Shown piece by piece: positions 10,038 to 59,412 of a DNA stretch of 64,000 nucleotides. Each line of letters begins with the position of its first letter. The stretch's first letter is position 1. A program made the position numbers and the translations under genes. Under the pieces are notes generated by a model. It had not been told where the DNA came from, did no database searches, and saw only the letters and a list, made by a program, of their open reading frames with translations. The stretch comes from an uncultured Thermoplasmata archaeon (GTDB lineage Archaea; Thermoplasmatota; Thermoplasmata; UBA10834), in NCBI GenBank assembly GCA_963748615.1, contig CAVVJQ010000002.1, positions 323,240 through 387,239 of the forward strand. The letters run 5' to 3'.

Positions 10038-10553
10038 ATGAAGCGAATTTGGGCAATCCGCAAGGATGCTGAAGCGGTGTCTCCGGTTATTGCTACCATC
10101 TTGATGGTCGCGATTACCGTCGTCCTAGCAGCCGTCTTATATGTGATGGTTCTGGGATTCGGTGGCACGAGCCAGCAGACACCAACGACTCAGCTGACAA
10201 AGGGTACGATCTCCAATGGTGTGAGGTTGACTCTGGCAGCTGTGAGCATAGAGACTCTATGGAGTGATGTGACAGTTCTGATAACCGATGGATCGAACAA
10301 CGCGAACTGGATCAATATCACTACTGAAGATCTCGATGGCGGAGAGGTTATCATGCACAACTACGCGTCCAAGACTCTTGGGAGCCTTGCCGTGTTCTTG
10401 AACATAACCGATCTGGCAGGTAACGGATACGCGAATCAGGGTGATTCACTTGCTCTGACCGCAGGTTCGTTCGCGAGCACAACCACCTACACGGTGACAT
10501 TGATGTACTCGCCAACATCGAGCGAAATGACCCACATAACATTCAACGGTTAG
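10038..10553 (+). CDS. Archaeal type IV pilin-like protein (class III signal peptide, DUF1628-type N-terminus)
   Basis: The N-terminus is MKRIWAIRKDAEA|VSPVIATILMVAITVVLAAVLYVMV, the canonical archaeal prepilin motif. The remainder is beta-rich and Thr/Asn-rich. Confidence 0.85.
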   Translation: MKRIWAIRKDAEAVSPVIATILMVAITVVLAAVLYVMVLGFGGTSQQTPTTQLTKGTISNGVRLTLAAVSIETLWSDVTVLITDGSNNANWINITTEDLDGGEVIMHNYASKTLGSLAVFLNITDLAGNGYANQGDSLALTAGSFASTTTYTVTLMYSPTSSEMTHITFNG

Positions 10554-30108: not shown

Positions 30109-30165
30109 TATCCACCCTCGTCATCCAAGTGACAACTCTAATATGTCAACGAGTCAATCGGCCTT

Positions 30166-38203: not shown

Positions 38204-39214
38204 ATGATGACAGAAGACCAGAGCATTTCGCAGATAATCGAGGACGCAGTCAAGAGCCTGAGGACCCAGGAGGCCGAGGTCCGCAAGAAGGATCAGGACG
38301 TTCAGGGCCAGAGGTCCGAGCTTCAGAAGATGAAGGCGGAGCTGGAGTCACGTGAACAGATGCTCCGCGAGAAGGAGGACTCACTGAGGGAAACGGAATC
38401 GTCCCTTGAGAGAAAGGACGAGGAGGTCACGGCTCGCGAGGCATCCGTCCAGACCAAGGCGGCCCAGGTGGATGCGAAGAATGCCGAGGCTCTGAAGCTC
38501 GAGGAACGGTCAAAGGCGGCCCTGGCGAATGCGGAGGCGAGGGAGCGGGAAGCCGAGACCTCGTTATCGGAATCATCTCGCGCCCAGGCCGAGACGACCC
38601 AAAAACGCAAAGTGCTCCTCGACCGGGAAGATCAGATGAAGAAGTCCGAGGAGGAACTCCAGAGGCTTATGGAACAGGTGGCATCGAGGCGTGATGCGCT
38701 CATATCTCGTGAGCGTTCCCTGGCAGCTGAAGAGGAATCCATCCGGAATGATCGCGAAAGACTCTCAGAAGACGCTCAGAGGCTCCTCAACAGACAGACC
38801 GAAGTGATCGAGGGCGTCACCGTGGAGCAGGCCGAAGGCATTGAGACAAGCAAGTCCGATCTGGGCGACGACGAGATAGAATGCCCCCGGTGCAAGACGG
38901 TCATAAGCAAGGACGCGATAATGTGCTATTCCTGTGGTCATCAACTGAGGGTGGTCGAACCCGAAGAGATCTCAGAGGATGCATCTGGCCAAGAGGACGA
39001 TGTCGAACCATCCGAGGAAGATGAGGTGTCCTGTCCGAAGTGCAGGACGATGGTCAGCAAGGGTGCGATAATGTGCTACGCCTGCGGTTCCGACCTGAGA
39101 GGTTCGCAGCAGGAAGCGGATGAGTCAGGAAGTCGCGAAGAGGAGAAAGTCGCAGAGGAACCCAAGAAGCCACAGGTCTTTGTCAAGAAGATCGTCAAGA
39201 AAAAGGTCGCTTAG
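38204..39214 (+). CDS. Coiled-coil protein with two C-terminal zinc ribbons (function unknown)
   Basis: About 220 aa of Glu/Lys/Arg-rich heptads, then CPRCKTVISKDAIMCYSCG and CPKCRTMVSKGAIMCYACG, and a basic tail. Confidence 0.7.
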   Translation: MMTEDQSISQIIEDAVKSLRTQEAEVRKKDQDVQGQRSELQKMKAELESREQMLREKEDSLRETESSLERKDEEVTAREASVQTKAAQVDAKNAEALKLEERSKAALANAEAREREAETSLSESSRAQAETTQKRKVLLDREDQMKKSEEELQRLMEQVASRRDALISRERSLAAEEESIRNDRERLSEDAQRLLNRQTEVIEGVTVEQAEGIETSKSDLGDDEIECPRCKTVISKDAIMCYSCGHQLRVVEPEEISEDASGQEDDVEPSEEDEVSCPKCRTMVSKGAIMCYACGSDLRGSQQEADESGSREEEKVAEEPKKPQVFVKKIVKKKVA

Positions 39215-39324
39215 CCAGCATCTGTTCGAACCCTTCGTCGCCATGAAAATATGGCAAATAGCTTTTTATATAGCCGAACTGCTTACTTTGATTCGCAATA
39301 CCCAGCATCTGGGTGGGTGAACTT

Positions 39325-40725
39325 ATGGAACACAGAGCTGGCCCTCTTCTGGCCAACAGATCTCTGAGCGCATTGATTGTAGCCACATTCGTGCTGTCGG
39401 CGTTCGCCGGGTTATTCGTAATGTCGAATCCTGCGCCTACCGCTGCACAGACACCGATCGGTGACCTGAATGTAACTGCCGGCACATACACAATCGAGAA
39501 TGTGAACCAACCTGTAGATGGTGATGTTCTCGTCAGTGGTGGGGAGCTGATAATACGGAACGCTGCTTTGCTGGTGATCAGCAACGAAGGTGTTCAGCGG
39601 ACGGTGACGGTCGAGACCGATGGAACCATGATTCTTGAACATGGCACTCTCACCACCTATCTGGATCAGATCGATCCATGGCCGTTCCTGGTTGTGGATA
39701 TCGATGGAGGGACTCTCATAGCCTCGGAGCGGTCGCTATTGAGTTTCCCAGGCTCGATCACCGTACAGAACGGTGGCGAGCTCATACTGTATGACAGTAC
39801 TATCGAGCCGCTACCTGCAGGGGATATATCCTTGTACCTCTCAGGATCCCCCACGGTAGCCATTGACGCCGCGGATGATGGACCTGAGATCTCAGTCATT
39901 GACGGCTCAATAATGATGTTCGATTCCGAGATAACGAGCCTTCCGGAATATCCTTCCCTGGGTCTCGTCGCAAGCAACCTCACTCTGAGTGGAGAATCTA
40001 CTCTGCTGGCGGTCAACAGCTACATCAGTGTTGACTTCGGACCTGACGTTAGTGCATCTGATTGGTACACTCATAATATGCTGGTCTTGTCGAATTCTTC
40101 AAAAGCCCATCTTTACGGAACATATTTCGATGAGTATTCTGGTAGCTACTCGGCGAGGTCATCTGCCGTCCTTGCTGATGGCGAAAGCTACATTGCATTG
40201 CCTACTTCCTCTGGATCAGAAGATACTACGGGACAACCTTACACTGATCTCCTGGCCAGCAATGAAGGTTCAACATACCACGTCGCTCCAGGGGATGTAA
40301 TGGCCATTGATACTTTCAGTGCAGGTCCTCCAGCGACAGTTGATGAAGCAACGCTGTATGTGAGATATCTCGTGGATGCCGGATATAACGGCGCGAGATC
40401 ATTTACATGGTGCCTTGAAGGAGGAACTGCTGCATCAACTGGAATCACTCCATTGCCGTCTGAGACTTCCTTCGTAGAGAAGAGCTTCGATTTGCGTGAT
40501 GCGGGAGTAACCACCACTAGCGATCTTGCTGATTTGGATATCAACTTCATACACGATGGATCAACAGGCGATGTTCAAGTGGACAGCATGTCCATTGTAA
40601 TCTCTCTGGGGCCAGAAGCCTACATATATAGATGGATCAACCTGACAGTCGGCGATGAATACGGCGTGCCGATTCCCGACTGTGACATTTCATCGACATT
40701 TACGGGGTCTTTGACAGTTCTCTGA
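39325..40725 (+). CDS. Giant surface adhesin, N-terminal part (signal peptide and beta-helix-like module); probably the 5' portion of one gene continuing at 40718
   Basis: ATG 39325 is preceded by GGTGGGTGA. Signal/TM LSALIVATFVLSAFAGLFVM. The ORF ends inside an Ig-like domain that starts YIYRWINLTVGDEYGVPIPD. Confidence 0.75.
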   Translation: MEHRAGPLLANRSLSALIVATFVLSAFAGLFVMSNPAPTAAQTPIGDLNVTAGTYTIENVNQPVDGDVLVSGGELIIRNAALLVISNEGVQRTVTVETDGTMILEHGTLTTYLDQIDPWPFLVVDIDGGTLIASERSLLSFPGSITVQNGGELILYDSTIEPLPAGDISLYLSGSPTVAIDAADDGPEISVIDGSIMMFDSEITSLPEYPSLGLVASNLTLSGESTLLAVNSYISVDFGPDVSASDWYTHNMLVLSNSSKAHLYGTYFDEYSGSYSARSSAVLADGESYIALPTSSGSEDTTGQPYTDLLASNEGSTYHVAPGDVMAIDTFSAGPPATVDEATLYVRYLVDAGYNGARSFTWCLEGGTAASTGITPLPSETSFVEKSFDLRDAGVTTTSDLADLDINFIHDGSTGDVQVDSMSIVISLGPEAYIYRWINLTVGDEYGVPIPDCDISSTFTGSLTVL

Positions 40726-40795: not shown

Positions 40796-43700
40796 ATGGA
40801 CGAGACCGCTGAATCATTTGGTGTCACAGGCCCACTCGGTGCCGCGACCATACCCCTAATGACTGATTTGGTGTCTGGTGGCCAATCTCCCAACTCTCTG
40901 TTTGTCGGAAGTTATAGTATTACTGGAACCGTCATACAGGGCGCAGTGGAGCATGCATCAAACGAAACCTTCTCATTCCCTGCATACCCTGCGATGTCGA
41001 TTACAGATCAGCAATTCGACATGACGGTCGATGTTCAAGGCATATCTGCCGAGAGCCCTGACCCATCCAAGTGGTTAGTTGTTCCGCCAAACCTAACGAT
41101 CGAGAACATGAGCTACTATCACGCGGGCGATGTCATAGTGGCGTCTGATGGTAATCTCACGCTGAGGAACGCAGTCTTTGAGCTAGTCCAGTCAGTTGCG
41201 AATGAGAGAACCGTCTATGTCGATGGAACTGCCAACTTCGTGATCGAGGACTCTCAGGTGAACAGTGCATTCGCGATCGATATCATAGTCAAGGGCAATG
41301 GGACGCTCGAAGTCAACAGGTCAGTTCTGAACGGCGTGAACATAGTCGCTATGGACGACGCGCTCGTGATTCTCAGAGATACTGACTTTGATGGTACGTT
41401 GAGCACTTCATGGGACTCATCGGCTAGAATCGTGGTCGTCGACTCCGTACTTGCTATGGCGCCGGTACTGTCTGGCAATGCGTTGGGAGAGTTTACGAAC
41501 TCGAGTGTTCCATCGATCGTGATAACGGAAGACGCAAGAGCATTGATCTACAGATGGATCCACGTGACCGTTCTAGATGGTGGAGACAACCCCCTGCCAG
41601 GAGCGACTGTGTCGACATGGTTCTTTGTGAACGGTACATACTGGTCGAGTGCGCTCAGCGACGAATCGGGGATAGCAGAGATTAGATCCCTGGGAACAAT
41701 ACTGACATCCGAAGGCTCGACGTTTGTCGGCAACTACAAGATCAACTCGACATACATGAGCGACGGAGAAATGCATTTCTCGGATCTGACGATATCCATA
41801 GGCGTCATGCCGTATACTCAGCCCCTGACTGAAAACGCAACATACGCCGTGCTGAGAATGTCCACAGTCGTACTTCCCGATCTTAGCGTGAGGCCGGGTT
41901 ATATTTGGACCGAGCCAGTGGATGTCGTGTACGACTCTGAATGTACGATCTTCGCCTTCATAGAAAACACCGGAGATAAGGTCGCTGAAGATGTTATGGT
42001 TGAGTTCTTGATAGGAGCAGATATCGAGACGGCAACCCTTCTGAATTCGACCGTGATTTCAACGATAAACTCGGACAGTCAGGTGACTGTTCATGTAGGT
42101 TGGATTCCTGACAGTATTGGGACATTCACAGTATGGGTCCGGGTCAACGGTGGGCTCGACGGAACCCCGGATTTCAATGAGCTTTCATTCATTGACAACC
42201 AGGAATGGGTCTACATCCGAGTGTTGGACTACGCTGACCTCTCGCTGAATGCGATCGAATTCTTGGCCGGCGACCCGTTGTTTGCAGTGTCGACCATGCC
42301 TGGCGGACAGACCGTATATGTCCGTTCAGTGTTGTTCAACAACGGTGAGGCTCCAGTCTTGAACCCTGAAGTATCATTGACTGTGAACTATAGCGACTCT
42401 GAGAGCGAGGTCTTCAATCAGACACTGTACGGTGTTCTCTATGGGGGCGCTCAATTCGCGGTTGAGTTCGAGTATTCCGCACCATTTGTGGTGAACAACA
42501 CTGTTTTCACTTTCACAATGGAAGCGAACCCCTATGGTGCAGTGATGGAGACTGACCTGACAGACAACGTGGTGACGGATACGCTCACCATCCTTGATAT
42601 CCGTGAAGATTTCAAAGTCGCCGCGGATGACATCTCGGTGGAAGACGATTCTTATGCCCACGAGTTCGGAACCCGGGTCAATATTACGGCCAATGTCTAC
42701 AACCTAGGTGGAACCGACCCAGGCTATGTGAGCATCGAATTCTCCATTAGGTTGGGCGACTCTCTGAACTACTTGATTGGCATCAAGGAAACGAACATAC
42801 CTGCAGGTATGTGGACGCCAGTCAGAATGCCGTATATGATAAACCTGACGGTTGGAGCAACATATTCCATATTCGTGTCCGTAGACTATGACAACAACCG
42901 GTCGAATGAGAAGAGCGAGACGAACAACAATGCATCGATAGATTTCGAAATCATCGATCTCGTTTATCATATCGAAATTACATCCGACGCGAGCGAGTAC
43001 AAAGCGGGCACCAATGCAGAGGTGACCCTGTACATCTTCTATGGCGCAGAGGCGCCGGCGTCAGGTGCGGAGAAAGCCGTATCTGGGTTGCCAGGTATTT
43101 CCGTTAACCTCGTGAGCCCCGGCGGAGATATTCTCAAGCACGCGGATGCCATTTCGACATCCACGGGCGGTCAGGCAGTATTTACTGTGGTGCTCGATGG
43201 TGAACTTGAGACTGGTCAGTACACGCTAGTCCCAGTCGTTCTCGGAGACGAGCAGCCCAGCTCCTCGATTACGATAAGTGTAGACGGCGCGGTTTCTGGT
43301 CGTGGCATTGCATTGTGGGTATGGCTCGCAATAATCGGGGTGATCGTTGGTTCCGTTCTCGGAGTTACTGCTTATATCTATTTCCGAGGCCTCGGCAAAC
43401 TGGTCGAGTGTGGAGAATGCGGCGCATTCATCCCTGCTGGGAACAAGAGATGCCCGAAGTGTGGAGTCGAGTTCGAAGTCGGCACGATGAAATGCTCTGA
43501 GTGCGGAGCATGGGTGCCTGCAGAATCGACCGAGTGCCCCAACTGCGGTGTGAAGTTCGTTGGCGAGGAGATCGGTGAAGAGGATTACCTCGAGAAGATG
43601 AGAGGCGAGTACGACGAGATGGTCTCTAAATACCGCGAACTGGCAAAGCCCGAGCTCGGAAAGAAGTTCAGCGACAAGAAGTTCGAAGAGTGGTGGGCGA

Positions 43701-44110
43701 CCCAGCCGACATACATCTCTTTCGAGGATTGGCTCGCAAAGGAAGAGGAGAAGCATAAGGAGGGCCCGGTACCATGCCCTGTCTGTGGCACTATGAACCC
43801 GAAGGAATCGAGCGTATGCCACAAGTGCGGCACGGTCTTCGGAGTCGAAAAGGACGTGCCTCCAGGAGAGCAGCCGCCGACCCCACCATCCTCAGGCGAA
43901 CAGGTGCCAGAACCATCCAGAGTCGAACCTGCTCCGCCAGGTGAGAAGGCTCCAGAACAACCGAGCCCACCTCAAGCTGCGGCGCCCAAGATGGTCATCC
44001 GAAGACCCATCGATAGAAAGGTGGTCCCGAAGAAGATCATTAAGACTCCGATAGCGAGGACTTCGGATAAGAACGGCAACGAGTCCGACAACAGCGATGA
44101 TCAACAGTAG
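40796..44110 (+). CDS. Giant surface adhesin, C-terminal part: beta-helix-like, CarboxypepD_reg-like and CARDB repeats, TM anchor, cytoplasmic triple zinc-ribbon and Pro-rich tail
   Basis: No signal peptide. At least three CARDB-like units (e.g. PDLSVRPGYIWTEP...IENTGDKVAEDVMVEF). TM IALWVWLAIIGVIVGSVLGVTAYIYF at about 43303-43385. Ribbons are CGECGAFIPAGNKRCPKCG, CSECGAWVPAESTECPNCG and CPVCGTMNPKESSVCHKCG. The frame is open back to 40715. Confidence 0.8.
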   Translation: MDETAESFGVTGPLGAATIPLMTDLVSGGQSPNSLFVGSYSITGTVIQGAVEHASNETFSFPAYPAMSITDQQFDMTVDVQGISAESPDPSKWLVVPPNLTIENMSYYHAGDVIVASDGNLTLRNAVFELVQSVANERTVYVDGTANFVIEDSQVNSAFAIDIIVKGNGTLEVNRSVLNGVNIVAMDDALVILRDTDFDGTLSTSWDSSARIVVVDSVLAMAPVLSGNALGEFTNSSVPSIVITEDARALIYRWIHVTVLDGGDNPLPGATVSTWFFVNGTYWSSALSDESGIAEIRSLGTILTSEGSTFVGNYKINSTYMSDGEMHFSDLTISIGVMPYTQPLTENATYAVLRMSTVVLPDLSVRPGYIWTEPVDVVYDSECTIFAFIENTGDKVAEDVMVEFLIGADIETATLLNSTVISTINSDSQVTVHVGWIPDSIGTFTVWVRVNGGLDGTPDFNELSFIDNQEWVYIRVLDYADLSLNAIEFLAGDPLFAVSTMPGGQTVYVRSVLFNNGEAPVLNPEVSLTVNYSDSESEVFNQTLYGVLYGGAQFAVEFEYSAPFVVNNTVFTFTMEANPYGAVMETDLTDNVVTDTLTILDIREDFKVAADDISVEDDSYAHEFGTRVNITANVYNLGGTDPGYVSIEFSIRLGDSLNYLIGIKETNIPAGMWTPVRMPYMINLTVGATYSIFVSVDYDNNRSNEKSETNNNASIDFEIIDLVYHIEITSDASEYKAGTNAEVTLYIFYGAEAPASGAEKAVSGLPGISVNLVSPGGDILKHADAISTSTGGQAVFTVVLDGELETGQYTLVPVVLGDEQPSSSITISVDGAVSGRGIALWVWLAIIGVIVGSVLGVTAYIYFRGLGKLVECGECGAFIPAGNKRCPKCGVEFEVGTMKCSECGAWVPAESTECPNCGVKFVGEEIGEEDYLEKMRGEYDEMVSKYRELAKPELGKKFSDKKFEEWWATQPTYISFEDWLAKEEEKHKEGPVPCPVCGTMNPKESSVCHKCGTVFGVEKDVPPGEQPPTPPSSGEQVPEPSRVEPAPPGEKAPEQPSPPQAAAPKMVIRRPIDRKVVPKKIIKTPIARTSDKNGNESDNSDDQQ

Positions 44111-44248: not shown

Positions 44249-46006
44249 TCAGGTCCGCTGAGGAGGGCCGGTCTCTGCCAGTTTCGCTCGGACCTCTTTC
44301 ATGACCTTGTCTGGATCCTTGTAATATGCAGATATGATGGTGGCGACCTTCTTGTGATTGTCGATACTCATCTTCTTCATGTACTCGAGAATGTCGACAC
44401 GCCTCTTGATCTCCCTTTCCATCTCACGCGGGGCCCAGTTCCTGGCCATCCTGACCTTCTCGTAAACGTAGCTGTGGCCGCTGTAGTTGAAGGTATCATC
44501 TGCCGGGTTCCATGTGTAGACGGAGTTCGTGATCAGCTCATCTGTCTCAGGGTCTATTCCGACGATCTCCGTCAGTGACTTGACCCTTCTGGTCATTTTG
44601 GTCCCGACCTTGACCTGCGCCTGCAATAGCACGATGTTGAGGGCGGTTATCAATGCCCTGGGCAGGTTGATGGGGTCGTTCTCCATCCTATGGACCATCG
44701 CCTGGACATCCTCTGCGTGGAAAGTGGAGTAACAGGTCTTGCCAGTCGCCATGGCTTGGAATACGACATACGCTTCCTTGCCTCTGACCTCACCGACCAT
44801 CAGATACTGGGGCCTCTGCCTCATGGCAGCAGTGAGCAAGTCGAACATATCTATCTCGCCGGAAGACCTTCCCGTGATCATACTCTTCCCACCGAAGCCC
44901 TCTCGAGTCAGACCAGGGACCCAGTTCTCATGGGGTAGGTTGAGTTCTCTAGTATCCTCGATGGAGACGATCTTCATCTGTGGCGGGATGAAAAGCAGGA
45001 CCGCGTTCAGCGTCGTGGTCTTTCCGCTCGCGGTACCTCCGCACACGAGCATCGATTGTCCATGCTCGATGCCTATCCAGAGGTATGCCATCATTTCGGT
45101 ACTCATCGTCTTGAATTTGAGTAGGTCGAGCGGCGTGAACGGATTCTCCTTGAACCGTCTGATTGTGAACGACGAACCTCTCTTCGTGACATGCTTTCCG
45201 AGGGTCGCCTGCAATCTCGAACCGTCCGGGATCGTTGCGTCCAGAAGCGGGCTTGCAACCGAGATGTGCTTACCGCACTTCTGAGCAAGCCATACCACGA
45301 AACCGTCGAGTTCCACCTCCTTCTCGAATCTGAGGTTGGACCTTATTGAACCGTATTTCCTGTGGTAGATGTACAGCGGGACGTCGACCCCATCGCAGGA
45401 GCAGTCCTCCACATTCGGTTCGGTCATCATCACGTCGATGACGCCATACCCAAGGAAATCCCTCAGGAGATAGTACATGACCCTCTCCTTGGATACTGGA
45501 TGCAGCGATATGCCCAGCTGATCCATGAGCTCTTCGATGATCCGCCTGAGGTATTTCTCCTTCTCGGAAGGTTCCTCCTCGGTCATCTTCTCGACAGATG
45601 CGATCAGAGTCTCCTTCAGCAAGGCGAGCACGGCTGCCTCGTCTCCCAGCAGCTTCGGCTCGATCACCTCATATGTGTACTCGTTGGCTTTGTTATCGTA
45701 CCTTATCCTGACATACGAGTAATTCTGCTTGACTGGTACCATCTCGACCTCGTCGATATTCGACTCGGTCAGTTTTGGTATCTCGGTGATCTGGCTGATA
45801 TCGACCTTCACTTCGTTCTTTGTGATTGCGATCATCGCAGGTCTGGGCTTAATCTTCATGAGGAAACCATAGTACGCCGCGAAAAAGCCTCCGCTCTTCG
45901 CCTTCTCCTCCGCTGGAGGGGGAGTCTTCTCGTCCGTTTCAGGCGCGTTTGGCTGCGGTTCCTCCGTCTCTATCTTGACCTGCTCGGTTTCAGACATCTC
46001 AATCAC
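44249..46006 (-). CDS. Type II/IV secretion-family ATPase (ArlI/EpdL/CpaF-like), copy 2
   Basis: Walker A CGGTASGKTTTLNA, EDTRELNLPHENW, Walker B/His box MVGEVRGKEAYVVFQAMATGKTCYSTFHA. GTG 46006 overlaps the upstream stop; ATG 45997 is an alternative start. Confidence 0.9.
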   Translation of the reverse strand: MIEMSETEQVKIETEEPQPNAPETDEKTPPPAEEKAKSGGFFAAYYGFLMKIKPRPAMIAITKNEVKVDISQITEIPKLTESNIDEVEMVPVKQNYSYVRIRYDNKANEYTYEVIEPKLLGDEAAVLALLKETLIASVEKMTEEEPSEKEKYLRRIIEELMDQLGISLHPVSKERVMYYLLRDFLGYGVIDVMMTEPNVEDCSCDGVDVPLYIYHRKYGSIRSNLRFEKEVELDGFVVWLAQKCGKHISVASPLLDATIPDGSRLQATLGKHVTKRGSSFTIRRFKENPFTPLDLLKFKTMSTEMMAYLWIGIEHGQSMLVCGGTASGKTTTLNAVLLFIPPQMKIVSIEDTRELNLPHENWVPGLTREGFGGKSMITGRSSGEIDMFDLLTAAMRQRPQYLMVGEVRGKEAYVVFQAMATGKTCYSTFHAEDVQAMVHRMENDPINLPRALITALNIVLLQAQVKVGTKMTRRVKSLTEIVGIDPETDELITNSVYTWNPADDTFNYSGHSYVYEKVRMARNWAPREMEREIKRRVDILEYMKKMSIDNHKKVATIISAYYKDPDKVMKEVRAKLAETGPPQRT

Positions 46007-46935
46007 GCAAACAGTATTCTGAGGGAAACGAACCCTGCGACCAACATGATGAAGCTGTGCCTCATTCCTATGGGGATGCTGCCCTTTTGAATCACACCAG
46101 CGAGTATTCCATCTCCGACCGCATGTACTACTATCGCAAGCAGGAACACGAACCCGACCTCGTCAATGACCGCGACCTTGATGTTGACCCCTGGAATCTC
46201 CTGCAACCCCATCTCCTGGGCGGATTCGTTCACAGTCGTCCCTGCCTCTTCCATCTTGGGCAGGAACTGCAGGTTGAGGATCAATATTGTCGCAATGAAC
46301 ACGAAGAATGAAATGTAGACGACCATCACATATGTCGACATGGTCACGTTCCTCTCTTCCTGTGTGAGGATGGTCTCCTTGGCATCATGGGAAACCATCG
46401 TGAGGACATCGGCAACGTTGCCGCCAGCATCGTTAGCTTTCCGTATTATCGATGTCATTCTTATGACCAGTGGCGTCTTGACCCTCTCCGAGAACAATCT
46501 GATGGCCTCAGATGCTGGCACACCCCATTCTATCTGCGCAGACATCTTCTTTATCTCTGGGGTCAACCGACCGTATCTGCCGGATGATGCGATGACGATT
46601 GAATCCGCCAAAGTCATGCCGAACCTTCCCGCCTCCGCCACATCCCTGAGGAAATCGGGCAGTCTGGTCTCGATCTCCCTGATGTGCTTCTCCTTTGCCG
46701 AAGTGTAAAATCCGTAGGGGGCAAGGAATGCCAATATTCCAAAGATGACGTAATCAATCGGTTCGAACGGGAGTGAAAGGCTACCTATCCCATCTATGAT
46801 CGCCAAGAAGATGCATATGCCCACAGCGGCGAACGAACCTGCCAGGATGGTCTTGGTTTTATCAGACTTCTCAGTGGAGAGGATCTTCTTGATCGCCCTC
46901 TCCTGCTCTGCCTGGCTGAGTTTCTTCGTTGTCAT
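46003..46935 (-). CDS. T2SSF-domain platform protein (TadC/EpdK-like half-platform)
   Basis: Start set at ATG 46935, 1 nt after the upstream TAG. Two N-terminal TM helices, a cytoplasmic helical T2SSF-like domain (LPDFLRDVAEAGRFGMTL...) and C-terminal TM helices. Confidence 0.75.
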   Translation of the reverse strand: MTTKKLSQAEQERAIKKILSTEKSDKTKTILAGSFAAVGICIFLAIIDGIGSLSLPFEPIDYVIFGILAFLAPYGFYTSAKEKHIREIETRLPDFLRDVAEAGRFGMTLADSIVIASSGRYGRLTPEIKKMSAQIEWGVPASEAIRLFSERVKTPLVIRMTSIIRKANDAGGNVADVLTMVSHDAKETILTQEERNVTMSTYVMVVYISFFVFIATILILNLQFLPKMEEAGTTVNESAQEMGLQEIPGVNIKVAVIDEVGFVFLLAIVVHAVGDGILAGVIQKGSIPIGMRHSFIMLVAGFVSLRILFA

Positions 46936-46936
46936 T

Positions 46937-47980
46937 CTACATCGCCCCTTCCTGTGACATGTTCCAAATGACAAATATGAATCCAAACTGTGAGATCGGG
47001 ATCATCCCTAGGACGATCAGATAGAGGAGCGTGACCATCATGTTGGAGTCGCCTCCACCCACGATTGCCATGATCGCCATGATGAGGACAAGGAAGAGGG
47101 GGAAAGCAACGACGACGGTGACGAAGGATTCAGCGAGCATGCCGAGCGTCTCCATCTGGGACTTCATGGCAAGCTTGTTCTCTTTCTGGTATTCATCCGC
47201 CTTGAGCAGGAAGTACGGCTTGAGTTGCCCGCCAGATGTAGAGGTAGTGACGACACCCTGCAAGAACTCCTGGAACTTGGCCGAGGGTGATCTCTTCGAA
47301 GCCTTCTTGATAGCGGTCAGGATATCCGACCCCAGAAGTTCCGTATCTCGCGTGATCCACGAGGACTCCTCTGAGATCTCCCCGTAGACCTTCTGTCTCG
47401 AGAGTTCCTTGAATATGACATCTATATTGACATCCGCGGACGCCATGGCCGAGATGAAGCTCATCGCAGCTGCGATCCTCTTGTCGATATCCCTGCCTCT
47501 GGACTTGGCCTTCGAGGCTGGTGATCCCATGAGCATCATGAACGCCATCATGGGTAACAGACCGATTGCAAGGCCCGATATCAAGATCCTTATGACTAAC
47601 GATACGCCCAGCACCCCGAAGAGGATGACGCCGACGACCACTGCTATGACTACTCCTATGATGAGTGCGACGATAGTGCTCATGAGCACGAAGGCATAGT
47701 ATTCTTCCGCCCGTATCTTGATGTGGGCCTTGGTGAGTGATTCCTCAAGGCTTTGGTTGTTGGCGCTGGTCATCCGCTCACTCGCATACTTGCCCATTAT
47801 GCGCCAGGACATGTCCTGAAACTTGGTCAGACTGATATAGTCGGGGACAGCGCCCTTGGTCAACCGGATCCCATGAGGTCCGATATCCTCCCCTCTCTGG
47901 GTCAGTTTGGTCTTGAGGTACTCTCCCTTCTTGGTCTCGACTCTCTCGAAGACATCGGAGACTTCAGGCAGAGTCGGCAC
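46937..47980 (-). CDS. T2SSF-domain platform protein (TadB/EpdJ-like half-platform)
   Basis: 347 aa with central TM pairs and a T2SSF-like helical domain (DIDKRIAAAMSFISAMASADVNIDVIFKEL). The GTG start overlaps the end of ATPase copy 1 by 17 nt. Confidence 0.75.
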   Translation of the reverse strand: MPTLPEVSDVFERVETKKGEYLKTKLTQRGEDIGPHGIRLTKGAVPDYISLTKFQDMSWRIMGKYASERMTSANNQSLEESLTKAHIKIRAEEYYAFVLMSTIVALIIGVVIAVVVGVILFGVLGVSLVIRILISGLAIGLLPMMAFMMLMGSPASKAKSRGRDIDKRIAAAMSFISAMASADVNIDVIFKELSRQKVYGEISEESSWITRDTELLGSDILTAIKKASKRSPSAKFQEFLQGVVTTSTSGGQLKPYFLLKADEYQKENKLAMKSQMETLGMLAESFVTVVVAFPLFLVLIMAIMAIVGGGDSNMMVTLLYLIVLGMIPISQFGFIFVIWNMSQEGAM

Positions 47981-49733
47981 CTCCCGTCGGCATCTTCAGA
48001 CCGCTCTGGGAGGCTGCGGGATACATGTCCTTTCGAACCTTCTCCGCTTGTCCCTTGGGGTCCTTGTAGTATGATTTGATGATGTTCCAGATGTCCACAT
48101 GGTCTGACATGTCCTTGGACACCATGTATTTCACGATATCCACACGGCGCTCGAATTCCTCCAGGAGTTCTTCGTGTGTGAGATTCTTCATCTCCATGAT
48201 CTTGTCAAACAGGAAGCTGTGGCCCTTGAAGATGAACTTATCCGTGGCCTGATCCCATTCGTAGACCGTGTTGCTGATGAGTTCGTTCGTTTCGGGTTCG
48301 AAACCAACGATCTCGATGAGCTGCTTGACCCTCCTGACCATGTCCATTCCTACTCTCGCATGAGTCTGGATTATGACATTCCTCAGGGCAGTTAGCAGAA
48401 TTCTGGGACAGTTGATGGGCGGGTTCTCAAGTCTGTTGACCATGCCCTTGACAGAATCCGCGTGCATGGTCGAGAAGGTAGTGTGACCTGTCGCCATCGC
48501 CTGGAACATGGTGTAGGTCTCCTTTCCTCTAACCTCTCCGACGATGATGTAGTTAGGCCTCTGTCTCAACGCGGCCCTGACGAGGTCGTACATGTCTATC
48601 TCCCCTGCGGCCTTTCCATCCGGCCCCCGTTCGCCTGAGCCAGTTCTTGTCGTGCCAGGGATCCAGTTCTCATGGGGTAGGTTGATCTCTCTAGTATCCT
48701 CCATGGTGACGACTTTGGCACCAGGGGGTATGAACAGCGACATTGCGTTGAGCGTCGCCGTCTTTCCACTCGCCGTGCCTCCGGCTATGATGGCCGACTC
48801 TCCATGCTCGACGCTGAGCCACAGGTACGCGACTATCTCCGGTGACGCCGTGCCATACTTGATCAGCTCGACAGGCGTGAACGGTTTCTCCTTGAATCGT
48901 CTGATCGTGAACGATGCACCCCTCGTAGTCACTTCCCTCGCGTAGGTCGCCTGGACTCTGTGCCCTTCAGGTGTAGTACCATCGAGTATGGGGTTCGAGA
49001 CGGAGAGCTGCTTCCCACATCTCTGACCAAGTGATATGACGAACGAGTTGAGTTCGTCCTCATCCTCGAACACGACATTGGTCTTGATGGATTCGAATTT
49101 GTTGTGGAAAAGGAACAGCGGGATGCCCACGCCATCGCAAGACACGTCTTCGACATGAGTGTCACTCATCATTGCATCGATCGGACCATATCCGACGAAA
49201 TCCCTCGTGATGAAGTATTTCACCTTGTCTTCCGAGATCGGTTCAAGCCGGATTCCTCTCGACCTGATATAGCTGTCCACGCTCCTCTCAAGGTAAGTCT
49301 TCTTGTTCATGTGGTCGAGCTTCGCCCATTCATAATCGAGGGTCATCTCGAAGGTGCTCTTGATCTTCTTCATCAGCGCGTCTTCATCTTCGGTAAGCAC
49401 TGGCTCGATCACGTTCATTATGTAATCGCTGGTGGCCGCGTTGTATGTTATTCTCACGTAGCTGAACGGGTCAACCACTGGATAGAACGCCATCTCCTGG
49501 ATATCCGGGTCCGTGATGGGTGGGATTTCGGTGTACGGTGAACCCTTCCCATCCTTCCACTGCTTCCTTCTGGCAGCTGCGCCCTTCGCGGATTTGACCT
49601 TGATGGGTTCGGACTTGAGCCTGCTCACAGCGTTTATGTATCCATGCCAGATGCGAGCACCCATTGGCCGTCTAGGGGCTTTCACGGGTATGTCATATTC
49701 AATTTTCGCCTCTGCCTCAGCCAAAACGCTCAC
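47964..49733 (-). CDS. Type II/IV secretion-family ATPase (ArlI/EpdL/CpaF-like), copy 1
   Basis: Walker A AGGTASGKTATLNA, EDTREINLPHENW, IVGEVRGKETYTMFQAMATGHTTFSTMHA. GTG start 2 nt after the upstream TAG. Confidence 0.9.
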   Translation of the reverse strand: MSVLAEAEAKIEYDIPVKAPRRPMGARIWHGYINAVSRLKSEPIKVKSAKGAAARRKQWKDGKGSPYTEIPPITDPDIQEMAFYPVVDPFSYVRITYNAATSDYIMNVIEPVLTEDEDALMKKIKSTFEMTLDYEWAKLDHMNKKTYLERSVDSYIRSRGIRLEPISEDKVKYFITRDFVGYGPIDAMMSDTHVEDVSCDGVGIPLFLFHNKFESIKTNVVFEDEDELNSFVISLGQRCGKQLSVSNPILDGTTPEGHRVQATYAREVTTRGASFTIRRFKEKPFTPVELIKYGTASPEIVAYLWLSVEHGESAIIAGGTASGKTATLNAMSLFIPPGAKVVTMEDTREINLPHENWIPGTTRTGSGERGPDGKAAGEIDMYDLVRAALRQRPNYIIVGEVRGKETYTMFQAMATGHTTFSTMHADSVKGMVNRLENPPINCPRILLTALRNVIIQTHARVGMDMVRRVKQLIEIVGFEPETNELISNTVYEWDQATDKFIFKGHSFLFDKIMEMKNLTHEELLEEFERRVDIVKYMVSKDMSDHVDIWNIIKSYYKDPKGQAEKVRKDMYPAASQSGLKMPTGGADSA

Positions 49734-49735
49734 CT

Positions 49736-50779
49736 CTAGGGGGCCACCTCGCCCACTGTAACCTGTACCGTCGCGTGCGTGTGGTCCAGGACGTTCACAT
49801 CCTTGATCGTGACTGTCAATGTGTAGTAATCGTTCTGAGTGCCTTCCAAATCATGTAACGTCAGAGGTCCTATCGAGAAGTCAGTATCGTATGTCAAACC
49901 GGCCAACGAGTTGTTGAGTGCCTTGTTGAAGTAAGTATGCCAAGCGTGTCCGTGCTTGCTCACTATCGTGAATGTAAGATCCGCTCCCGCGCTGCTTTCG
50001 TATACATTGGTGTTCGCATAGAGGAGGTCCGCGTATATCCCCTTCGTGCCAGTCCCACCCACGGTCTTATCAAGGCCAAGCATCGAGATCTGCGTCAGTT
50101 TGACGACTCTGCTGGAATCAGTTCCAGCAACGATATCCGTGACCGAGAACTGAAGCCCCGCGATGATGTACTCTCCATCCGATTGGTTGAGTATCAGGGC
50201 GCCACAATCATAGGTCAGATGCTGTTCGACATAGTACCTGTTAGGTGCATAGAAGTCGATGTATCCGCCAGAGTGTCCGTCATCGGTTGTGCTCAACGTC
50301 TGATCGTCGCCAACAAATGTCGAGTTGAACGATGGATACCCCGCGGTGGTTTGAGAACCGAATTGTAATATCCCTGCAGTGGGTGCAGCGAATATAGGTA
50401 TGCCCTGGGCATGTAAAGTTATCGGGACGAAAACGGGAGTGGGGGCCAGAAGGCTGTTCGAATAGTCCGCGACCAACCCGTCGATCTGGGACTTGAGGTA
50501 GATCATCTGCTGAACGACCGTCGCCATGTGCGCGCTCTCGTTATCGCTCATCCAGACAGGGACGAATTGGTTGGTGAACATGCCCATGAACGTAAGGAAT
50601 ACAAGGAGCGACATGATAGTGCCGATTGTCGAAGCAACCCCCTCATCATCGTTCCATCTCGGTGATCGCTTAATACGGCCAATTACGGAGTTTCCAGAAT
50701 AGCTATTTCGAATTTCTGACAAGTCCATCCTACCACCGAAGGGGGGTTTCTGAAGCAACCTAATCAGCGTCTGAAACAT
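49736..50779 (-). CDS. Pilin/FlaF-like membrane-anchored beta-rich protein (first gene of the filament operon)
   Basis: Charged N-terminus, then EG|VASTIGTIMSLLVFLTFMGMF (class-III-signal-like). The rest is Thr/Gly/Tyr-rich beta. An in-frame ATG at 50728 (preceded by GGTGGTAGG) is a likelier start, because the TTTAAATA box abuts 50779. Confidence 0.6.
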   Translation of the reverse strand: MFQTLIRLLQKPPFGGRMDLSEIRNSYSGNSVIGRIKRSPRWNDDEGVASTIGTIMSLLVFLTFMGMFTNQFVPVWMSDNESAHMATVVQQMIYLKSQIDGLVADYSNSLLAPTPVFVPITLHAQGIPIFAAPTAGILQFGSQTTAGYPSFNSTFVGDDQTLSTTDDGHSGGYIDFYAPNRYYVEQHLTYDCGALILNQSDGEYIIAGLQFSVTDIVAGTDSSRVVKLTQISMLGLDKTVGGTGTKGIYADLLYANTNVYESSAGADLTFTIVSKHGHAWHTYFNKALNNSLAGLTYDTDFSIGPLTLHDLEGTQNDYYTLTVTIKDVNVLDHTHATVQVTVGEVAP

Positions 50780-50990
50780 ATTTAAAGCCTTCGTTTCTGG
50801 TATCGTCTGGAATACACCTCATTTTGCCATCCCAGACTGGGCGAATTAGCCCGGTCACGGGGGCCATCGACGTTGATTGATTTCGCTCGAACACCTAATC
50901 CCCCGTCAATTTCCTTTCTTGCGTTTCGCATGATGCGAATCACCGAAGATTTAATACCGAGTTCCGCCTAACTGCCATTCCCAGCAGCGC

Positions 50991-51066
50991 GCCGTGGTAA
51001 CTCAGTTGGGAGAGTGCAAGACTGAAGATCTTGAAGTCGCTGGTTCGAGTCCGGCCCACGGCACCA
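50991..51066 (+). tRNA. tRNA-Phe(GAA), CCA encoded, no intron
   Basis: Acceptor GCCGTGG/CCACGGC, D arm ACTC-AGTTGGGA-GAGT, anticodon arm CAAGA-CTGAAGA-TCTTG, T arm GCTGG-TTCGAGT-CCGGC, discriminator A, then CCA. A TTTAATAC box lies about 35 nt upstream. Confidence 0.95.
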
Positions 51067-51176: not shown

Positions 51177-51614
51177 ATGCCAATCAAATCATTCGAACTA
51201 GTGTCGCTCGATGCGAAGAGATTCACAAAATTTGGGGAACGGGTCCCTCAGCTCAGGGTCGACCACAATACTTCAGTGACGAGCATATCTGCGATATCCG
51301 AGAAGGACGCCATGGTGGAATTCACATTCACAGTCAGCTATGTAGGCGTCGGGATAATCAAGATCGAAGGCAAGGTTGTATGGGACGGGGAAGCCCAGAC
51401 CATCGCATCCCAATGGGCCAACAAGAAGGAGCTCCCTCAGACTGTATTCAACCCTATCCTGAACGCGATCTTCGCGAACTGTATGCCCGCATCCGTCACA
51501 GTGGCGCGGGACATAGGCCTGCCACCGCCGTTGCCACCGCCACAGGTCGCGATGAAGCGGAACGCCAAGATGCCGGGCGCGAAGGACCATAAATCGTCCA
51601 TGGAAGTGGCCTGA
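51177..51614 (+). CDS. Hypothetical 145-aa protein (beta-rich core, Pro-rich basic tail)
   Basis: ATG preceded by GGAGGAG. Codon usage matches its neighbours. I recognise no family motif. Confidence 0.45.
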   Translation: MPIKSFELVSLDAKRFTKFGERVPQLRVDHNTSVTSISAISEKDAMVEFTFTVSYVGVGIIKIEGKVVWDGEAQTIASQWANKKELPQTVFNPILNAIFANCMPASVTVARDIGLPPPLPPPQVAMKRNAKMPGAKDHKSSMEVA

Positions 51615-51629: not shown

Positions 51630-54011
51630 TTATCTTATGTGGTCCAGTGAGAACGATCCGATGTTCAGTCCGGATTTGGTGAAAGAGTATCTAATGAACG
51701 CTCTTGACTGGACCTCGCAGATACCCTTCACCGATAGGAACATGTTCAGGTTCTCGAGTTTGAACTCGATCATGCCGTCCATGAGCGACCCGAGCATCTG
51801 AATCTCCTGATCCCCATGTACGCCCTTCTCAATCGTGTACATGGAGACTGCTTTGTCTCTCTTTCTTCTGCCAGCGACTGGGCTGAGGAATCGGAATGCC
51901 GTGTTCGGATCCAGATACGCTATGAGTGTGGAGATCGATCTGAACGCCATTCTATAGTATTCGTGGTCTTTCTTGAATCCCTTGGCCGCCTTCTCCAACG
52001 CCTTCTGAATCGATTCATAATCTGTTGGGGCCTCGACGTAATCCGTGTATGGGTCCTCGGTCTCGTCACCCATGCTCCGGGAATACATGTCCACGTATCT
52101 CACGAGTCCCCTGCTCTCATACTCCTCGTATCCTGAGAGCACGAACATCATCTCGTTCCTGATCTCCTTCGGTGATTTCTCGGTGATGACCCATATCGCG
52201 GGGATTCCTTTCTTCAACCCCTCTGCGATGAATGAATTCATGAGCACTTCCTTCCCAGTGAAGGGCGGGCCATAAATGAGCATGTTCGATCCGAAGGGCG
52301 CGCCGCCCAGAAGCAGATCATCGAGTCTGGTGGTCCCGGTCTTGACCTTCTCCTGTTTGAGTTCGATGAGTCTGTCCTGCTCCCTCTTCTCGATCTCATC
52401 TGTTATGAGCCCTTGCTCCCTCGCCCGGAGTTCTTCCTCCTTCATCGAGAAGTACTTCTCCTTGTTCCTTATCTCCTCTTCCTTCTGGGTGATCTGCCCC
52501 TGCAGCTCTTCGAGGCGTTGTTTCATGGTTAATTCGTCAGTGTTCATGAGGTCGCTCTTCTGTTGGGAGACCCTCTTCAGTTCCTCCTCTAGGAGCCTCT
52601 CCCTGAACATCAGGTCCTCCTCTCGGCGGATCATCTCCCGCTCCTTGTAGGCCAGCGGTTCTTTGAGCTTCTTCATCTCATCGTCTCGTATCCTCAACTC
52701 TTCCTTGAGCCTCTCCAATTCTTGCTCCCTCAGAGCGAACGATCGCTCGAGGTTCTGGGCCTCTTCCAACCTCTTCATTAGCGCTGGGTCCAATGCGGAG
52801 CCCTTAGCCGCGGATACCTTCGCTTTCTCTTCCAGATGTTTCATGTCGAATTCTGTCCGGGAGAGTTTCGCCTCCAATTCGTGTATCTGTTCGTTGAGCT
52901 CGCGTTCCTTGGCGGAGAACTCCTCCAGCTCCCTGATGCGCTCTTCGCTGTCCGAAGGTCCTCTTCCATAGGACATTATGCCTTCCTGGAGTGTGTTCTC
53001 CTTTGCCTTGAGCTGCAACTCATAAGCATCGATCTGGGCCATCCTCTGCGATAGCTCGATCTCCTGGCGCTTGAGGACCTGTGCATCCACGGGCATCTCG
53101 TTGATGCCCTTCTCCGTCTTTTCCCTGAGGTCCGTCAGTTGGTTCTCGAGCTCCATGACTTTCAGCCCGAGATCCTCCTTCTGGGCCATCTCGGACGCGA
53201 GCTTGTCCGTGAGGTTCTCCGCATCAGCCGGTGCCCCCTGTTGATTCTTGATGAATTTGATGACTGCGATGCTTCCGCGTTTGACATTCTCCAATTCCTC
53301 TTCCAGCTGCTTCCTGTGAACGCGCTCGGCCTCGACTTCGCTCCTTGTATGGGCTAGTTGTTCCAGGACAGCCTGAGGGTCGAACCCCTCCGTCTCGAAC
53401 TGCTTCAGCGTCTGTTTCAGTGTTTCGCGGAGTTGTGTGATTTCCTCACCGTGCTCGAGCATCTCCTCGGGCACGGTCTTCTCAGATTTGGGGATGCTCT
53501 TGATCTTGGGTTCATCGAGCCATGACTCAAGCCCCTCCTCGGTGCCAGCGAGCCACTTGGCTAGAGAATCGTCACGGATGAGCTCAGGTTCGGTCGCGGC
53601 CACCACATTCTTCTCCTCATGGTCCTCTCCCGAGATCCATGCGGACAGGCCTTCGTCCTCACCAGCCAACCAATGGGCGAGCTCCTTGTTCTCAGGACTC
53701 GCCAGCGATTGGGCGCCCTTGATTATCTTCGCGGCCAATTTGTCTCCGATGCCTCTGACTCCGGCCAATTCATCATGGTCTGCATTCTGCAGGTCATTGA
53801 CATTCCTGTAGCCGGCTCTGAGCAATAAATGAGCTTTTGCCTCGCCAACTCCAGGCACCGACCTAAGCTCCTCGATGTCCCCATCGCTTGAATGAGAATC
53901 CTCTACTAAGGGGGCAGCACAGTGCTCACAGCTGCCCTCGGAGACGGAAGACATCTGCCCGCAATTCGGGCATGAGACGTGACTCTTTTCCGCGTCATCT
54001 TTTTTCGGCAT
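51630..54011 (-). CDS. Zinc ribbon, tandem HhH, long coiled coil and a C-terminal KaiC-like domain (function unknown)
   Basis: CPNCGQMSSVSEGSCEHC; HhH pair LRSVPGVGEAKAHLLLRAG...ELAGVRGIGDKLAAKI. A duplicated motif is present (LAHWLAGEDEGLSAWI and LAKWLAGTEEGLESWL). About 400 aa of heptads follow. The C-terminal RecA-fold domain has LLLGGAPFGSNMLIYGPPFTGKEVL, i.e. P-loop GK followed by E rather than T/S. Confidence 0.75.
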   Translation of the reverse strand: MPKKDDAEKSHVSCPNCGQMSSVSEGSCEHCAAPLVEDSHSSDGDIEELRSVPGVGEAKAHLLLRAGYRNVNDLQNADHDELAGVRGIGDKLAAKIIKGAQSLASPENKELAHWLAGEDEGLSAWISGEDHEEKNVVAATEPELIRDDSLAKWLAGTEEGLESWLDEPKIKSIPKSEKTVPEEMLEHGEEITQLRETLKQTLKQFETEGFDPQAVLEQLAHTRSEVEAERVHRKQLEEELENVKRGSIAVIKFIKNQQGAPADAENLTDKLASEMAQKEDLGLKVMELENQLTDLREKTEKGINEMPVDAQVLKRQEIELSQRMAQIDAYELQLKAKENTLQEGIMSYGRGPSDSEERIRELEEFSAKERELNEQIHELEAKLSRTEFDMKHLEEKAKVSAAKGSALDPALMKRLEEAQNLERSFALREQELERLKEELRIRDDEMKKLKEPLAYKEREMIRREEDLMFRERLLEEELKRVSQQKSDLMNTDELTMKQRLEELQGQITQKEEEIRNKEKYFSMKEEELRAREQGLITDEIEKREQDRLIELKQEKVKTGTTRLDDLLLGGAPFGSNMLIYGPPFTGKEVLMNSFIAEGLKKGIPAIWVITEKSPKEIRNEMMFVLSGYEEYESRGLVRYVDMYSRSMGDETEDPYTDYVEAPTDYESIQKALEKAAKGFKKDHEYYRMAFRSISTLIAYLDPNTAFRFLSPVAGRRKRDKAVSMYTIEKGVHGDQEIQMLGSLMDGMIEFKLENLNMFLSVKGICEVQSRAFIRYSFTKSGLNIGSFSLDHIR

Positions 54012-58773: not shown

Positions 58774-59412
58774 ATGGGGAGAGCCGTGACGAAGCAGTGG
58801 CGGGCCCAGCGGAAGAGGGATTATTACTACCGCAAAGCCAAAGAGGAGCATTATCGGAGCAGGGCGTCTTACAAGCTCAAACAGCTGAACGACCGCTTCG
58901 GGATGATCCAACCTGGCGACACGGTGGTCGACCTCGGGGCTTCTCCAGGAGGCTGGTCCCAGGTGGCGGTCGAGCTCGCAGGTGAGGGGTCGAGTGTGTT
59001 CGCTCTGGATCTTGACCGCTTCGTTCCGATCGATGGAGTCACATTCATCCGAGGGGACATCCGCGATGTCAATGTCGTCGCTGGCCTTCTCGAACTCATA
59101 CCCGAAGGTGCAGATGTCGTGATATCTGATATGGCACCGAACATAAGTGGCAACTACTCCTATGACCACGCACTGTCGATCGAACTATGCGAGCACGCTC
59201 TGAAGTTCGCTTCCACAGTGCTGAAACCGAACGGCAATTTCGTTGCGAAGATGTTCTTCGGCGACATGAGCAAGGATTATGTCGCGTCCGTGAGACGCTC
59301 GTTCTATAATGTGAGTGTCCATCATCCACGCGCTTCTAGAAAGTCTAGCTCGGAGGTCTATGTCATCGGTCTGGGATTGAGGAAACCTCGGTCTAATCCC
59401 AGAACCTCTTAG
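58774..59412 (+). CDS. rlmE: 23S rRNA 2'-O-ribose methyltransferase RlmE/FtsJ
   Basis: YRSRASYKL, SAM motif VVDLGASPGGWSQV, DMAPNISG and the K-D-K-E context. Start set at ATG 58774. Confidence 0.9.
   Translation: MGRAVTKQWRAQRKRDYYYRKAKEEHYRSRASYKLKQLNDRFGMIQPGDTVVDLGASPGGWSQVAVELAGEGSSVFALDLDRFVPIDGVTFIRGDIRDVNVVAGLLELIPEGADVVISDMAPNISGNYSYDHALSIELCEHALKFASTVLKPNGNFVAKMFFGDMSKDYVASVRRSFYNVSVHHPRASRKSSSEVYVIGLGLRKPRSNPRTS

Follow-up and report, generated by a model that had tools for sequence, protein, structure and literature searches.

The prevailing view is that one multifunctional ATPase drives an archaeal type IV filament. Only one exception has been studied by experiment, the pilus CdiP of Cuniculiplasma divulgatum, and it was introduced as a unique outlier without explanation: its operon codes for two ATPases, CdiPE1 and CdiPE2, which the authors termed 'unique' and 'enigmatic', and for a platform split into an N-terminal half, CdiPFa, and a C-terminal half, CdiPFb (ISME J 2025, PMC12448462). 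The pilus was imaged and no twitching was seen, and its pilins are encoded about 500 kb from the machinery operon (PMC12448462). Two ATPases in one locus, together with one pilA-like gene, were also listed for Aciduliprofundum boonei and filed under clade 2 (Makarova et al., 2016, PMC4858521), and two-ATPase loci are not discussed in a 2026 preprint classifying archaeal type IV filament systems. Here we describe a five-gene operon of the same kind in a 64,000-nt stretch of DNA, hereafter called the window, from an uncultured Thermoplasmata archaeon (contig CAVVJQ010000002.1). Two ATPases, E1 and E2, flank the two halves of a split platform, Fa and Fb, and a pilin-like gene precedes them.

This operon is an orthologue of the already described two-ATPase, split-platform pilus motor, and it does not represent a new kind of system. 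A first-pass annotation of the window had implied that the arrangement was unreported, which the published A. boonei and C. divulgatum loci contradict; paired ATPases are thus on record, with no known role attached to the pairing in either source (PMC4858521; PMC12448462). What is new is the breadth and strictness with which this known layout is conserved, together with a change specific to E1 beside the putative first arginine finger.

Organisation of the operon

Five consecutive open reading frames (ORFs) occupy positions 44249-50779 of the minus strand in the order pilin-like gene, E1, Fa, Fb, E2 (Table 1). A 2-nt gap separates the pilin-like gene from E1, E1 and Fa overlap by 17 nt, Fa and Fb lie 1 nt apart, and Fb and E2 share 4 nt (GTGA); GTG serves as the start codon of E1, Fa and E2. 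The anatomy drawn by the first-pass annotation, a single compact operon with two intact paralogous ATPases on either side of a two-gene platform, is correct, and its five minus-strand ORFs, its four junction distances and its three GTG starts were all recovered when the sequence was read again. For the first gene, its ORF stands but its start probably does not: the public gene call (P0307) begins at Met18, which is most likely the true start (about 49736-50728, 330 aa). The TATA-box-like heptamer TTTAAAT, found some 55 nt upstream of Met18, is a candidate promoter element for the operon. Scans for bacterial-type promoters and terminators, models that are not applicable to archaea, returned counts no higher than in shuffled sequence. 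The KaiC-HhH gene farther upstream was considered as a further cistron and rejected, because a tRNA-Phe gene and an ORF, both on the plus strand, intervene; it is thus a neighbour of the operon.

Fa and Fb each contain one T2SSF domain. In NCBIfam comparisons, Fa covers positions 5-245 of 555 of an ArlJ model and Fb positions 181-450 of 465, corresponding to the N- and C-terminal halves, respectively, of ArlJ/UpsF-type platforms, and together they make up one split platform. No similarity was detectable when the two sequences were compared with each other. Platforms encoded by two genes are on record in several archaeal clades, the 2026 preprint being among the sources.

The product of the first gene has no Pfam match in the window, and PF23960 (DUF7289) is found in many of its homologues and in an orthologue from a related genome (L001). 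Read from the sequence, its N-terminus (...DDEG followed by VASTIGTIMSLLVFLTF) resembles a class III signal peptide. An AF2 model built with 57 homologues (pLDDT 78.5) has a transmembrane helix at residues 31-47 and a long helix at residues 64-88, followed by an all-beta domain; a PDB fold search with this model returned nothing significant (best E 4e-3, TM about 0.1). The 'signature' minor pilin of clade 2 systems, arCOG02911, was described as a 250-550-aa, all-beta protein with a class III signal, encoded beside the motor (PMC4858521). In its size, N-terminal helix and beta-rich model, the first gene product fits this description and is probably a candidate minor pilin of the arCOG02911 type.

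Orthology with the CdiP machinery

For comparison with C. divulgatum, a CdiPFa,b sequence derived by optical character recognition from the supplement of the published study was used as the platform query, and the ATPases of a Cuniculiplasma sp. contig (L085) stood in for CdiPE1 and CdiPE2. The platform halves of that contig match CdiPFa,b at 70% and 65% identity, and its operon consists of overlapping frames for E1 (840 aa), Fa (319 aa), Fb (280 aa) and E2 (528 aa). By BLASTP, Fa of the window aligns with residues 37-304 of CdiPFa,b (33% identity over 280 aa, E 9e-37) and Fb with residues 337-604 (28% identity over 283 aa, E 8e-35), so that the platform is split at the same point in both. In reciprocal BLAST searches, E1 of the window scores higher against the Cuniculiplasma E1 than against its E2 (413 versus 342 bits), and the converse holds for E2 (404 bits against E2, 375 against E1). 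Position and sequence together support the assignment of the window ATPases as orthologues of CdiPE1 and CdiPE2, which the tree alone does not strongly do.

The window and CdiP operons thus have in common the order E1-Fa-Fb-E2, overlapping frames and homologous platform halves divided at an equivalent point. They also have in common PilA-type pilin genes located at a distance from those of the motor. In contrast, the window operon opens with the DUF7289-like gene, which the Cuniculiplasma locus lacks, and its E1 has no long N-terminal extension (589 aa, as opposed to 840 aa in Cuniculiplasma). Identity between the window and the Cuniculiplasma or CdiP sequences is only about 28-46%, and the hosts differ as well, the window coming from a neutral-GC, HdrA2-encoding uncultured Thermoplasmata lineage and CdiP from the acidophilic Thermoplasmatales.

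The two ATPases

E1 and E2 have equal domain layouts and near-equal lengths, and they are 50% identical over 515 aa, in line with the earlier by-eye judgement that they are paralogous yet diverged. The same catalytic blocks are found in both, namely Walker A (GGTASGKT), the Asp box (EDTRE.NLPHENW), Walker B (VGEVRGKE) and the His box. In an alignment of 78 E1 and 64 E2 orthologues these motifs are at least 95% conserved, and neither copy is without an essential one. As many as 123 alignment columns, every catalytic motif included, show the same residue in E1 and E2 at a conservation of at least 95%, while 13 columns are fixed differently between them. The Walker B glutamate, which is the residue that differs between the FlaI entries 4II7 and 4IHQ, being mutated in the latter, is retained in E1 and E2. 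Both ATPases are catalytically intact and under strong constraint, and the view that neither has decayed holds.

In searches of PDB sequences, the best match of both proteins is afGspE of Archaeoglobus fulgidus (2OAP; 411 bits for E1, 436 for E2), followed by Sulfolobus FlaI (288 and 312 bits) and, at 141-147 bits, by the Tad pilus ATPase CpaF; chains of PilB or PilT are absent from the matches at E<=1e-10. The NCBIfam models give a similar picture. Scores with the FlaI model (413 bits for E1, 432 for E2) lie under its cut-off of 550, those with the TadA model (139-146 bits) under its cut-off of 373, and those with the PilB and PilT family models (44-48 bits) far under cut-offs of 319-676; for the PilT/PilU family, TIGR01420, they are 44.6 and 48.3 bits (48 bits for E1) against a cut-off of 319. 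Terminal domains of the PilB3 type (PilB3_N, PilB3_C) were found with Pfam in these ATPases, taking the window proteins and their homologues together.

Trees were constructed by neighbour joining (NJ) with Kimura distances and 200 bootstraps, on an alignment guided by a hidden Markov model, from which columns with 20% gaps or more had been trimmed (the first build kept 480 columns). They comprised the window proteins, 20 orthologue pairs, 115 domain sequences of 50%-identity cluster representatives, afGspE, FlaI and CpaF, the last serving as root, and no Haloferax PilB3 or PilB4 sequences. E1 and its 20 orthologues form a clade in 200/200 bootstraps, as do E2 and its own, and the two clades are exclusive sisters in none of the 200. 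When the pairs of Cuniculiplasma and of a further locus (L088) were added, an E1-type clade was recovered in 111/200 replicates. We conclude that the duplication predates the split between the Thermoplasmatales and the Methanomassiliicoccales-like lineages.

The paralogs also differ at one conserved site. All E1-type proteins have a derived motif, D(G/T)(T/S)xP(E/Q)G(H/N)R, which reads LDGTTPEGHR in the window, whereas the E2-type proteins, a single-ATPase relative, afGspE, FlaI and CpaF have DA(T/S)LPDGSR at the same site (LDATIPDGSR in E2 of the window). The arginine of the motif corresponds, in alignment numbering, to R208 of afGspE, and equivalents of R208 and R227, which we take to be the arginine fingers of that enzyme, are retained in both paralogs. 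E2-type proteins are also slightly closer than E1-type proteins to afGspE (p-distance 0.542 versus 0.575) and to FlaI (0.614 versus 0.653). We conclude that E2 is the conservative paralog, whereas E1 has specialised and is derived.

Conservation across the Thermoplasmatota

One genome per GTDB species was scanned, which yielded 80 loci, all from Thermoplasmatota and labelled Thermoplasmata, Methanomassiliicoccales or Methanomassiliicoccaceae, or DHVE2. The order E1-Fa-Fb-E2 is found in 67 of the 80; another 12 loci are cut by contig ends, the remaining one looks frameshifted, and no intact locus departs from this order. In the exceptional locus (L075, 9629-13430, from a long-read metagenome-assembled genome), one ORF of 1077 aa takes in Fa and Fb along with the N-terminal portion of E2, and the rest of E2 lies in another frame, probably as a result of an assembly frameshift and not of a natural fusion. 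A homologue of the pilin-like gene precedes E1 in 72/80 loci. One locus (L078) is labelled DHVE2 group archaeon, the group of which A. boonei is a member.

The closest relatives of E1 are uncultured Thermoplasmata proteins of 78-97% identity, whose contigs carry the same cassette and the same neighbours, i.e., the KaiC-HhH gene, HdrA2 and a giant CARDB/zinc-ribbon protein. Averaged over all pairs among the 45 loci in which none of the five genes is incomplete, identity amounts to 65% (E1), 67% (E2), 59% (Fa), 55% (Fb) and 35% (pilin-like protein), and each ATPase paralog is 60-95% conserved among its orthologues, as compared with the 50% identity between paralogs. Every sampled Thermoplasmatota genome that is informative thus has the cassette, which is passed on as one unit throughout the phylum.

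Why two motors?

With a probability of roughly 0.6, we regard the operon as coding for the membrane assembly motor of a CdiP-type adhesive archaeal type IV pilus in which one machine needs both motors. PilA-type pilins supplied from elsewhere, one of them possibly the pilin encoded near the other end of the window, would be processed by a peptidase whose gene lies outside the window and fed into the Fa/Fb platform. The pilin-like protein of the operon would act as a minor or priming subunit, and the neighbouring KaiC-family proteins might regulate the pilus system.

How the two motors might cooperate is a more tentative matter. Our preferred proposal, for which we would claim clearly less than even odds, is that both proteins are built into the same hexameric ring, probably in alternation. 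E1 would touch the cytoplasmic domain of Fa and E2 that of Fb, such that a duplicated motor would match a platform whose halves have become separate proteins. E2 would retain the ancestral chemistry, and E1, altered beside the putative first arginine finger, might tune or gate the ATP cycle. The mixed ring is favoured because each ATPase gene abuts one platform half with coupled reading frames, because E1 and E2 have the same length and domain layout, and because a related family contains natural tandem fusions of two complete ATPase domains, encoded next to T2SSF genes. In the same vein, the crystal of afGspE, the closest solved homologue, reportedly contains alternating open and closed subunits. 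In its strictest form, an obligate alternating E1/E2 hetero-hexamer on a hetero-oligomeric Fa/Fb platform, the proposal is somewhat less likely still; in a variant, E1 would be a retraction motor that arose independently in Archaea.

Two such tandem fusions were seen. P0142 (L089, 264-3728) has two complete secretion-ATPase domains in tandem, its halves being 54% identical, and the end of its gene is overlapped by a gene for a T2SSF protein of 388 aa. P0269 (L090 and L091, 685-3240), which comes from two independent samples, has the same construction with halves of 49% identity. Each half of either protein has its own Walker A and Walker B motifs. We know of no description of tandem secretion-ATPase fusions. 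Other related ATPases (P0185, P0186, P0189, P0223, P0238, P0239, P0247, P0255 and P0263) have the conserved domain broken by intein-like inserts of about 450-750 aa, at recurring positions close to Walker A or Walker B.

Several observations weigh against our overall reading of the operon and its two motors. With Cuniculiplasma and L088 included, the E2-type clade is recovered in only 62/200 replicates, which is weak, and nodes deeper than the E1 and E2 clades have a support of 6-16 out of 200. By tree position the tandem fusions are CpaF-like and belong to a different clade. Where paralogous pilus ATPases of bacteria have been studied, they reportedly form separate homohexamers (PMC6821130), and RNA-seq of C. 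divulgatum gave an Fa:Fb ratio of 2:1 instead of 1:1 (PMC12448462). The putative tie between the PilA-type pilin of the window and the two-ATPase motor is drawn by analogy with C. divulgatum. Finally, a split platform does not per se require two motors, because one Thermoplasmata contig (L087) pairs a platform split into 293 and 631 aa with a single, preceding ATPase of 862 aa, and the Epd and Tad systems do likewise. The L087 locus (3552-12369) is of another kind, with a Roadblock/LC7 gene, a KaiC-small GTPase fusion, a second KaiC gene and a gene for a 301-aa protein ahead of the ATPase.

E1 and E2 might instead form an extension/retraction pair that arose independently of PilT, in which E2 would polymerise the pilus and E1 would swap onto the platform and depolymerise it. 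We regard this as unlikely, although it is the strongest of the competing explanations. It would be consistent with the greater proximity of E2 to the assembly ATPases afGspE and FlaI, in p-distance and bit scores alike, with the substitutions that E1-type proteins have in common near the putative first arginine finger and with the variable N-terminus of E1, and bacterial retraction motors are thought to stem from duplication and sub-functionalisation (PMC6711533). E1, however, has the full layout of an assembly ATPase, and its score with the PilT model is far below the cut-off. Bacterial pilT is usually not translationally coupled to platform genes, which also counts against such a pair. Furthermore, no twitching was seen in C. 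divulgatum, which has the same operon (PMC12448462), and single archaeal and Tad ATPases already drive movement in both directions (PMC12448462, PMC6711533).

An improbable alternative is that one platform serves two classes of cargo, E1 being used, for example, for DUF7289-like or priming subunits and E2 for PilA-type pilins, or each being used under its own conditions. It has been argued that archaeal ATPase/TadC modules serve several pilin sets, and A. boonei combines two ATPases with one pilA-like gene (PMC4858521); the product of the first gene of the window operon, large and pilin-like, differs from the PilA-type pilin. Yet Cuniculiplasma has both ATPases without the upstream pilin-like gene. 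Coupled translation from one transcript speaks against condition-specific use, as does the RNA-seq of C. divulgatum, in which the machinery genes did not differ between growth phases (PMC12448462).

Relationship to other pilus systems

The closeness of the ATPases to afGspE, the scores below cut-off with the ArlI, TadA, PilB and PilT models and the presence of a PilA-type pilin place the window system with the euryarchaeal clade 2, or system 2, pili and not with Epd/Tad. System 2, exemplified by Haloferax PilB3-PilC3 and by afGspE, provides the nearest solved homologue and shares the PilB3_N and PilB3_C domains, a large pilin-like gene next to the ATPase gene, candidate PilA-type pilins in trans and KaiC-family neighbours. 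It differs in having a single-gene platform and one ATPase, according to the 2026 preprint, whereas in the window the platform is split and the ATPase duplicated.

The first-pass annotation had described the locus as an Epd/Tad arrangement, and the platform of two single-T2SSF genes next to an ATPase gene does recall EpdJ/EpdK of Methanococcus, which accompany EpdL, and TadB/TadC, which accompany CpaF. This likeness is in form only, as split platforms are known in other archaeal clades too. Epd and Tad systems have one ATPase, which is of another clade (CpaF at about 145 bits, compared with about 420 for afGspE), and short Flp-like pilins. In the CpaF-rooted NJ tree, both window paralogs fall within the clade that contains afGspE and FlaI, and their domains are of the PilB3 type. 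Neither a short Flp/Epd-type pilin nor an EppA/CpaA-type peptidase was found in the window, the sole pilin found there being of the PilA type with 171 aa. An Epd/Tad-type pilus that gained a second ATPase is refuted by these sequence comparisons.

An archaellum was also considered and rejected, given the FlaI model scores below cut-off and an operon without genes for ArlF, ArlG, ArlH, ArlC/D/E, ArlX or archaellins. Assignment of either protein to the PilT-type retraction ATPase family was rejected on the model scores and PDB matches given above. Bacterial type IVa pili with PilB/PilT(/PilU) sets resemble the window system in that more than one hexameric ATPase of the secretion superfamily serves a pilus platform. 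Unlike them, E1 and E2 fall outside both families, share one domain layout and 50% identity, and are both coupled to platform genes.

Least probable of all is that two independent operons were joined by chance, or that one ATPase is a recent redundant copy in decay: nothing but the bare duplication favours it, and it is excluded because the gene order is the same in genomes across Thermoplasmata, Methanomassiliicoccales and DHVE2 (the loci without it being uninformative), because the catalytic motifs are intact in both copies, which are never exclusive sisters, and because each paralog is better conserved among its orthologues than the two are with each other.

Pilin supply and neighbouring genes

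The candidate filament subunit in trans has the N-terminus MKRIWAIRKDAEAVSPVIATILMVAITVVLAA, which is 58% identical over 40 aa to CdiPB, the major pilin of C. divulgatum. A Pfam scan confined to the window and taking in all its ORFs of 150 aa or more found no Peptidase_A24 prepilin peptidase, in agreement with the earlier annotation. Directly before the pilin gene lie three successive KaiC-family genes (7705-8460, 8457-9047 and 9049-9774, plus strand). Two more (37375-38088 and the KaiC-HhH gene) bring their number in the window to five. An association of KaiC-family ATPases with the type IV pilus loci of clade 2 has been reported (PMC4858521).

Table 1. Genes of the two-ATPase operon and associated features of the window
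Feature	Position	Strand	Basis or remark
Pilin-like membrane protein, DUF7289-like, first operon gene	49736..50779 (347 aa ORF)	-	Homologues, signal peptide, AF2 model
ATPase E1, putative derived paralog (589 aa)	47964..49733	-	T2SSE, Pfam E 3e-33
Platform half Fa (347 aa), N-terminal half of PilC/ArlJ-type platform	46937..47980	-	One T2SSF domain
Platform half Fb (310 aa), C-terminal half of platform	46003..46935	-	One T2SSF domain
ATPase E2, putative conservative paralog (585 aa)	44249..46006	-	T2SSE, Pfam E 8e-32, plus PilB3_C
TATA-box-like TTTAAAT, candidate archaeal promoter element of operon	50780..50786	-	Sequence reading
tRNA-Phe	50991..51066	+	Between KaiC-HhH gene and operon
145-aa ORF	51177..51614	+	No family match; conserved, 35-97% identity
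Zn-ribbon/HhH/coiled-coil/KaiC protein (793 aa), conserved neighbour, candidate regulator	51630..54011	-	Pfam KaiC, DUF7504, HHH_5
PilA-type archaeal pilin (171 aa), candidate filament subunit in trans	10038..10553	+	Pilin_N PF07790, E 3e-12

The KaiC-HhH gene is syntenic upstream of the cassette in 28/80 loci, and wherever it occurs the 145-aa ORF sits between it and the operon, followed in the window by tRNA-Phe. On the other side, a plus-strand gene convergent to the end of the operon (40796-44110) codes for a protein of 1104 aa that combines CARDB domains with zinc ribbons at its C-terminus. Synteny of this gene extends to relatives, in which the protein reaches up to 1730 aa (L001), and the protein may be a large adhesin-like partner as reported for system 2 loci. 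Ahead of it are genes for a 470-aa protein with an N-terminal hydrophobic stretch and no Pfam match, for a zinc-ribbon protein and for a KaiC-family protein (39313-40725 and 38204-39214 being among these). Elsewhere in the window, a minus-strand gene (27731-30124) codes for a 797-aa archaeal protein with a bacterial DnaA-type ATPase domain (E 8e-50) and a C-terminal DUF835. An Lhr-type helicase is apparently split into a DEAD part (19049-20047) and a part with Helicase_C, WH_Lhr and DEAD_assoc (20058-22577, plus strand), followed by a gene for an AlkZ-like protein, and an intact Lhr of 914 aa is encoded at 59393-62137 on the minus strand.

Implications

The window locus itself is an ordinary member of its family. 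The family as a whole makes the two-motor, split-platform cassette an old and strictly conserved trait of the phylum, found in Methanomassiliicoccales of guts and sediments and in DHVE2 vent archaea, and not a quirk of one acidophile. The question of why there are two motors thereby becomes a general one, for which many natural pairs of E1 and E2 sequences are available. It bears on whether mixed rings are possible among ATPases of the secretion superfamily and on whether a dedicated retraction motor ever evolved in Archaea. An obligate E1/E2 hetero-hexamer, if true, would be a mixed-subunit motor without precedent among ATPases of the secretion/type IV filament superfamily.

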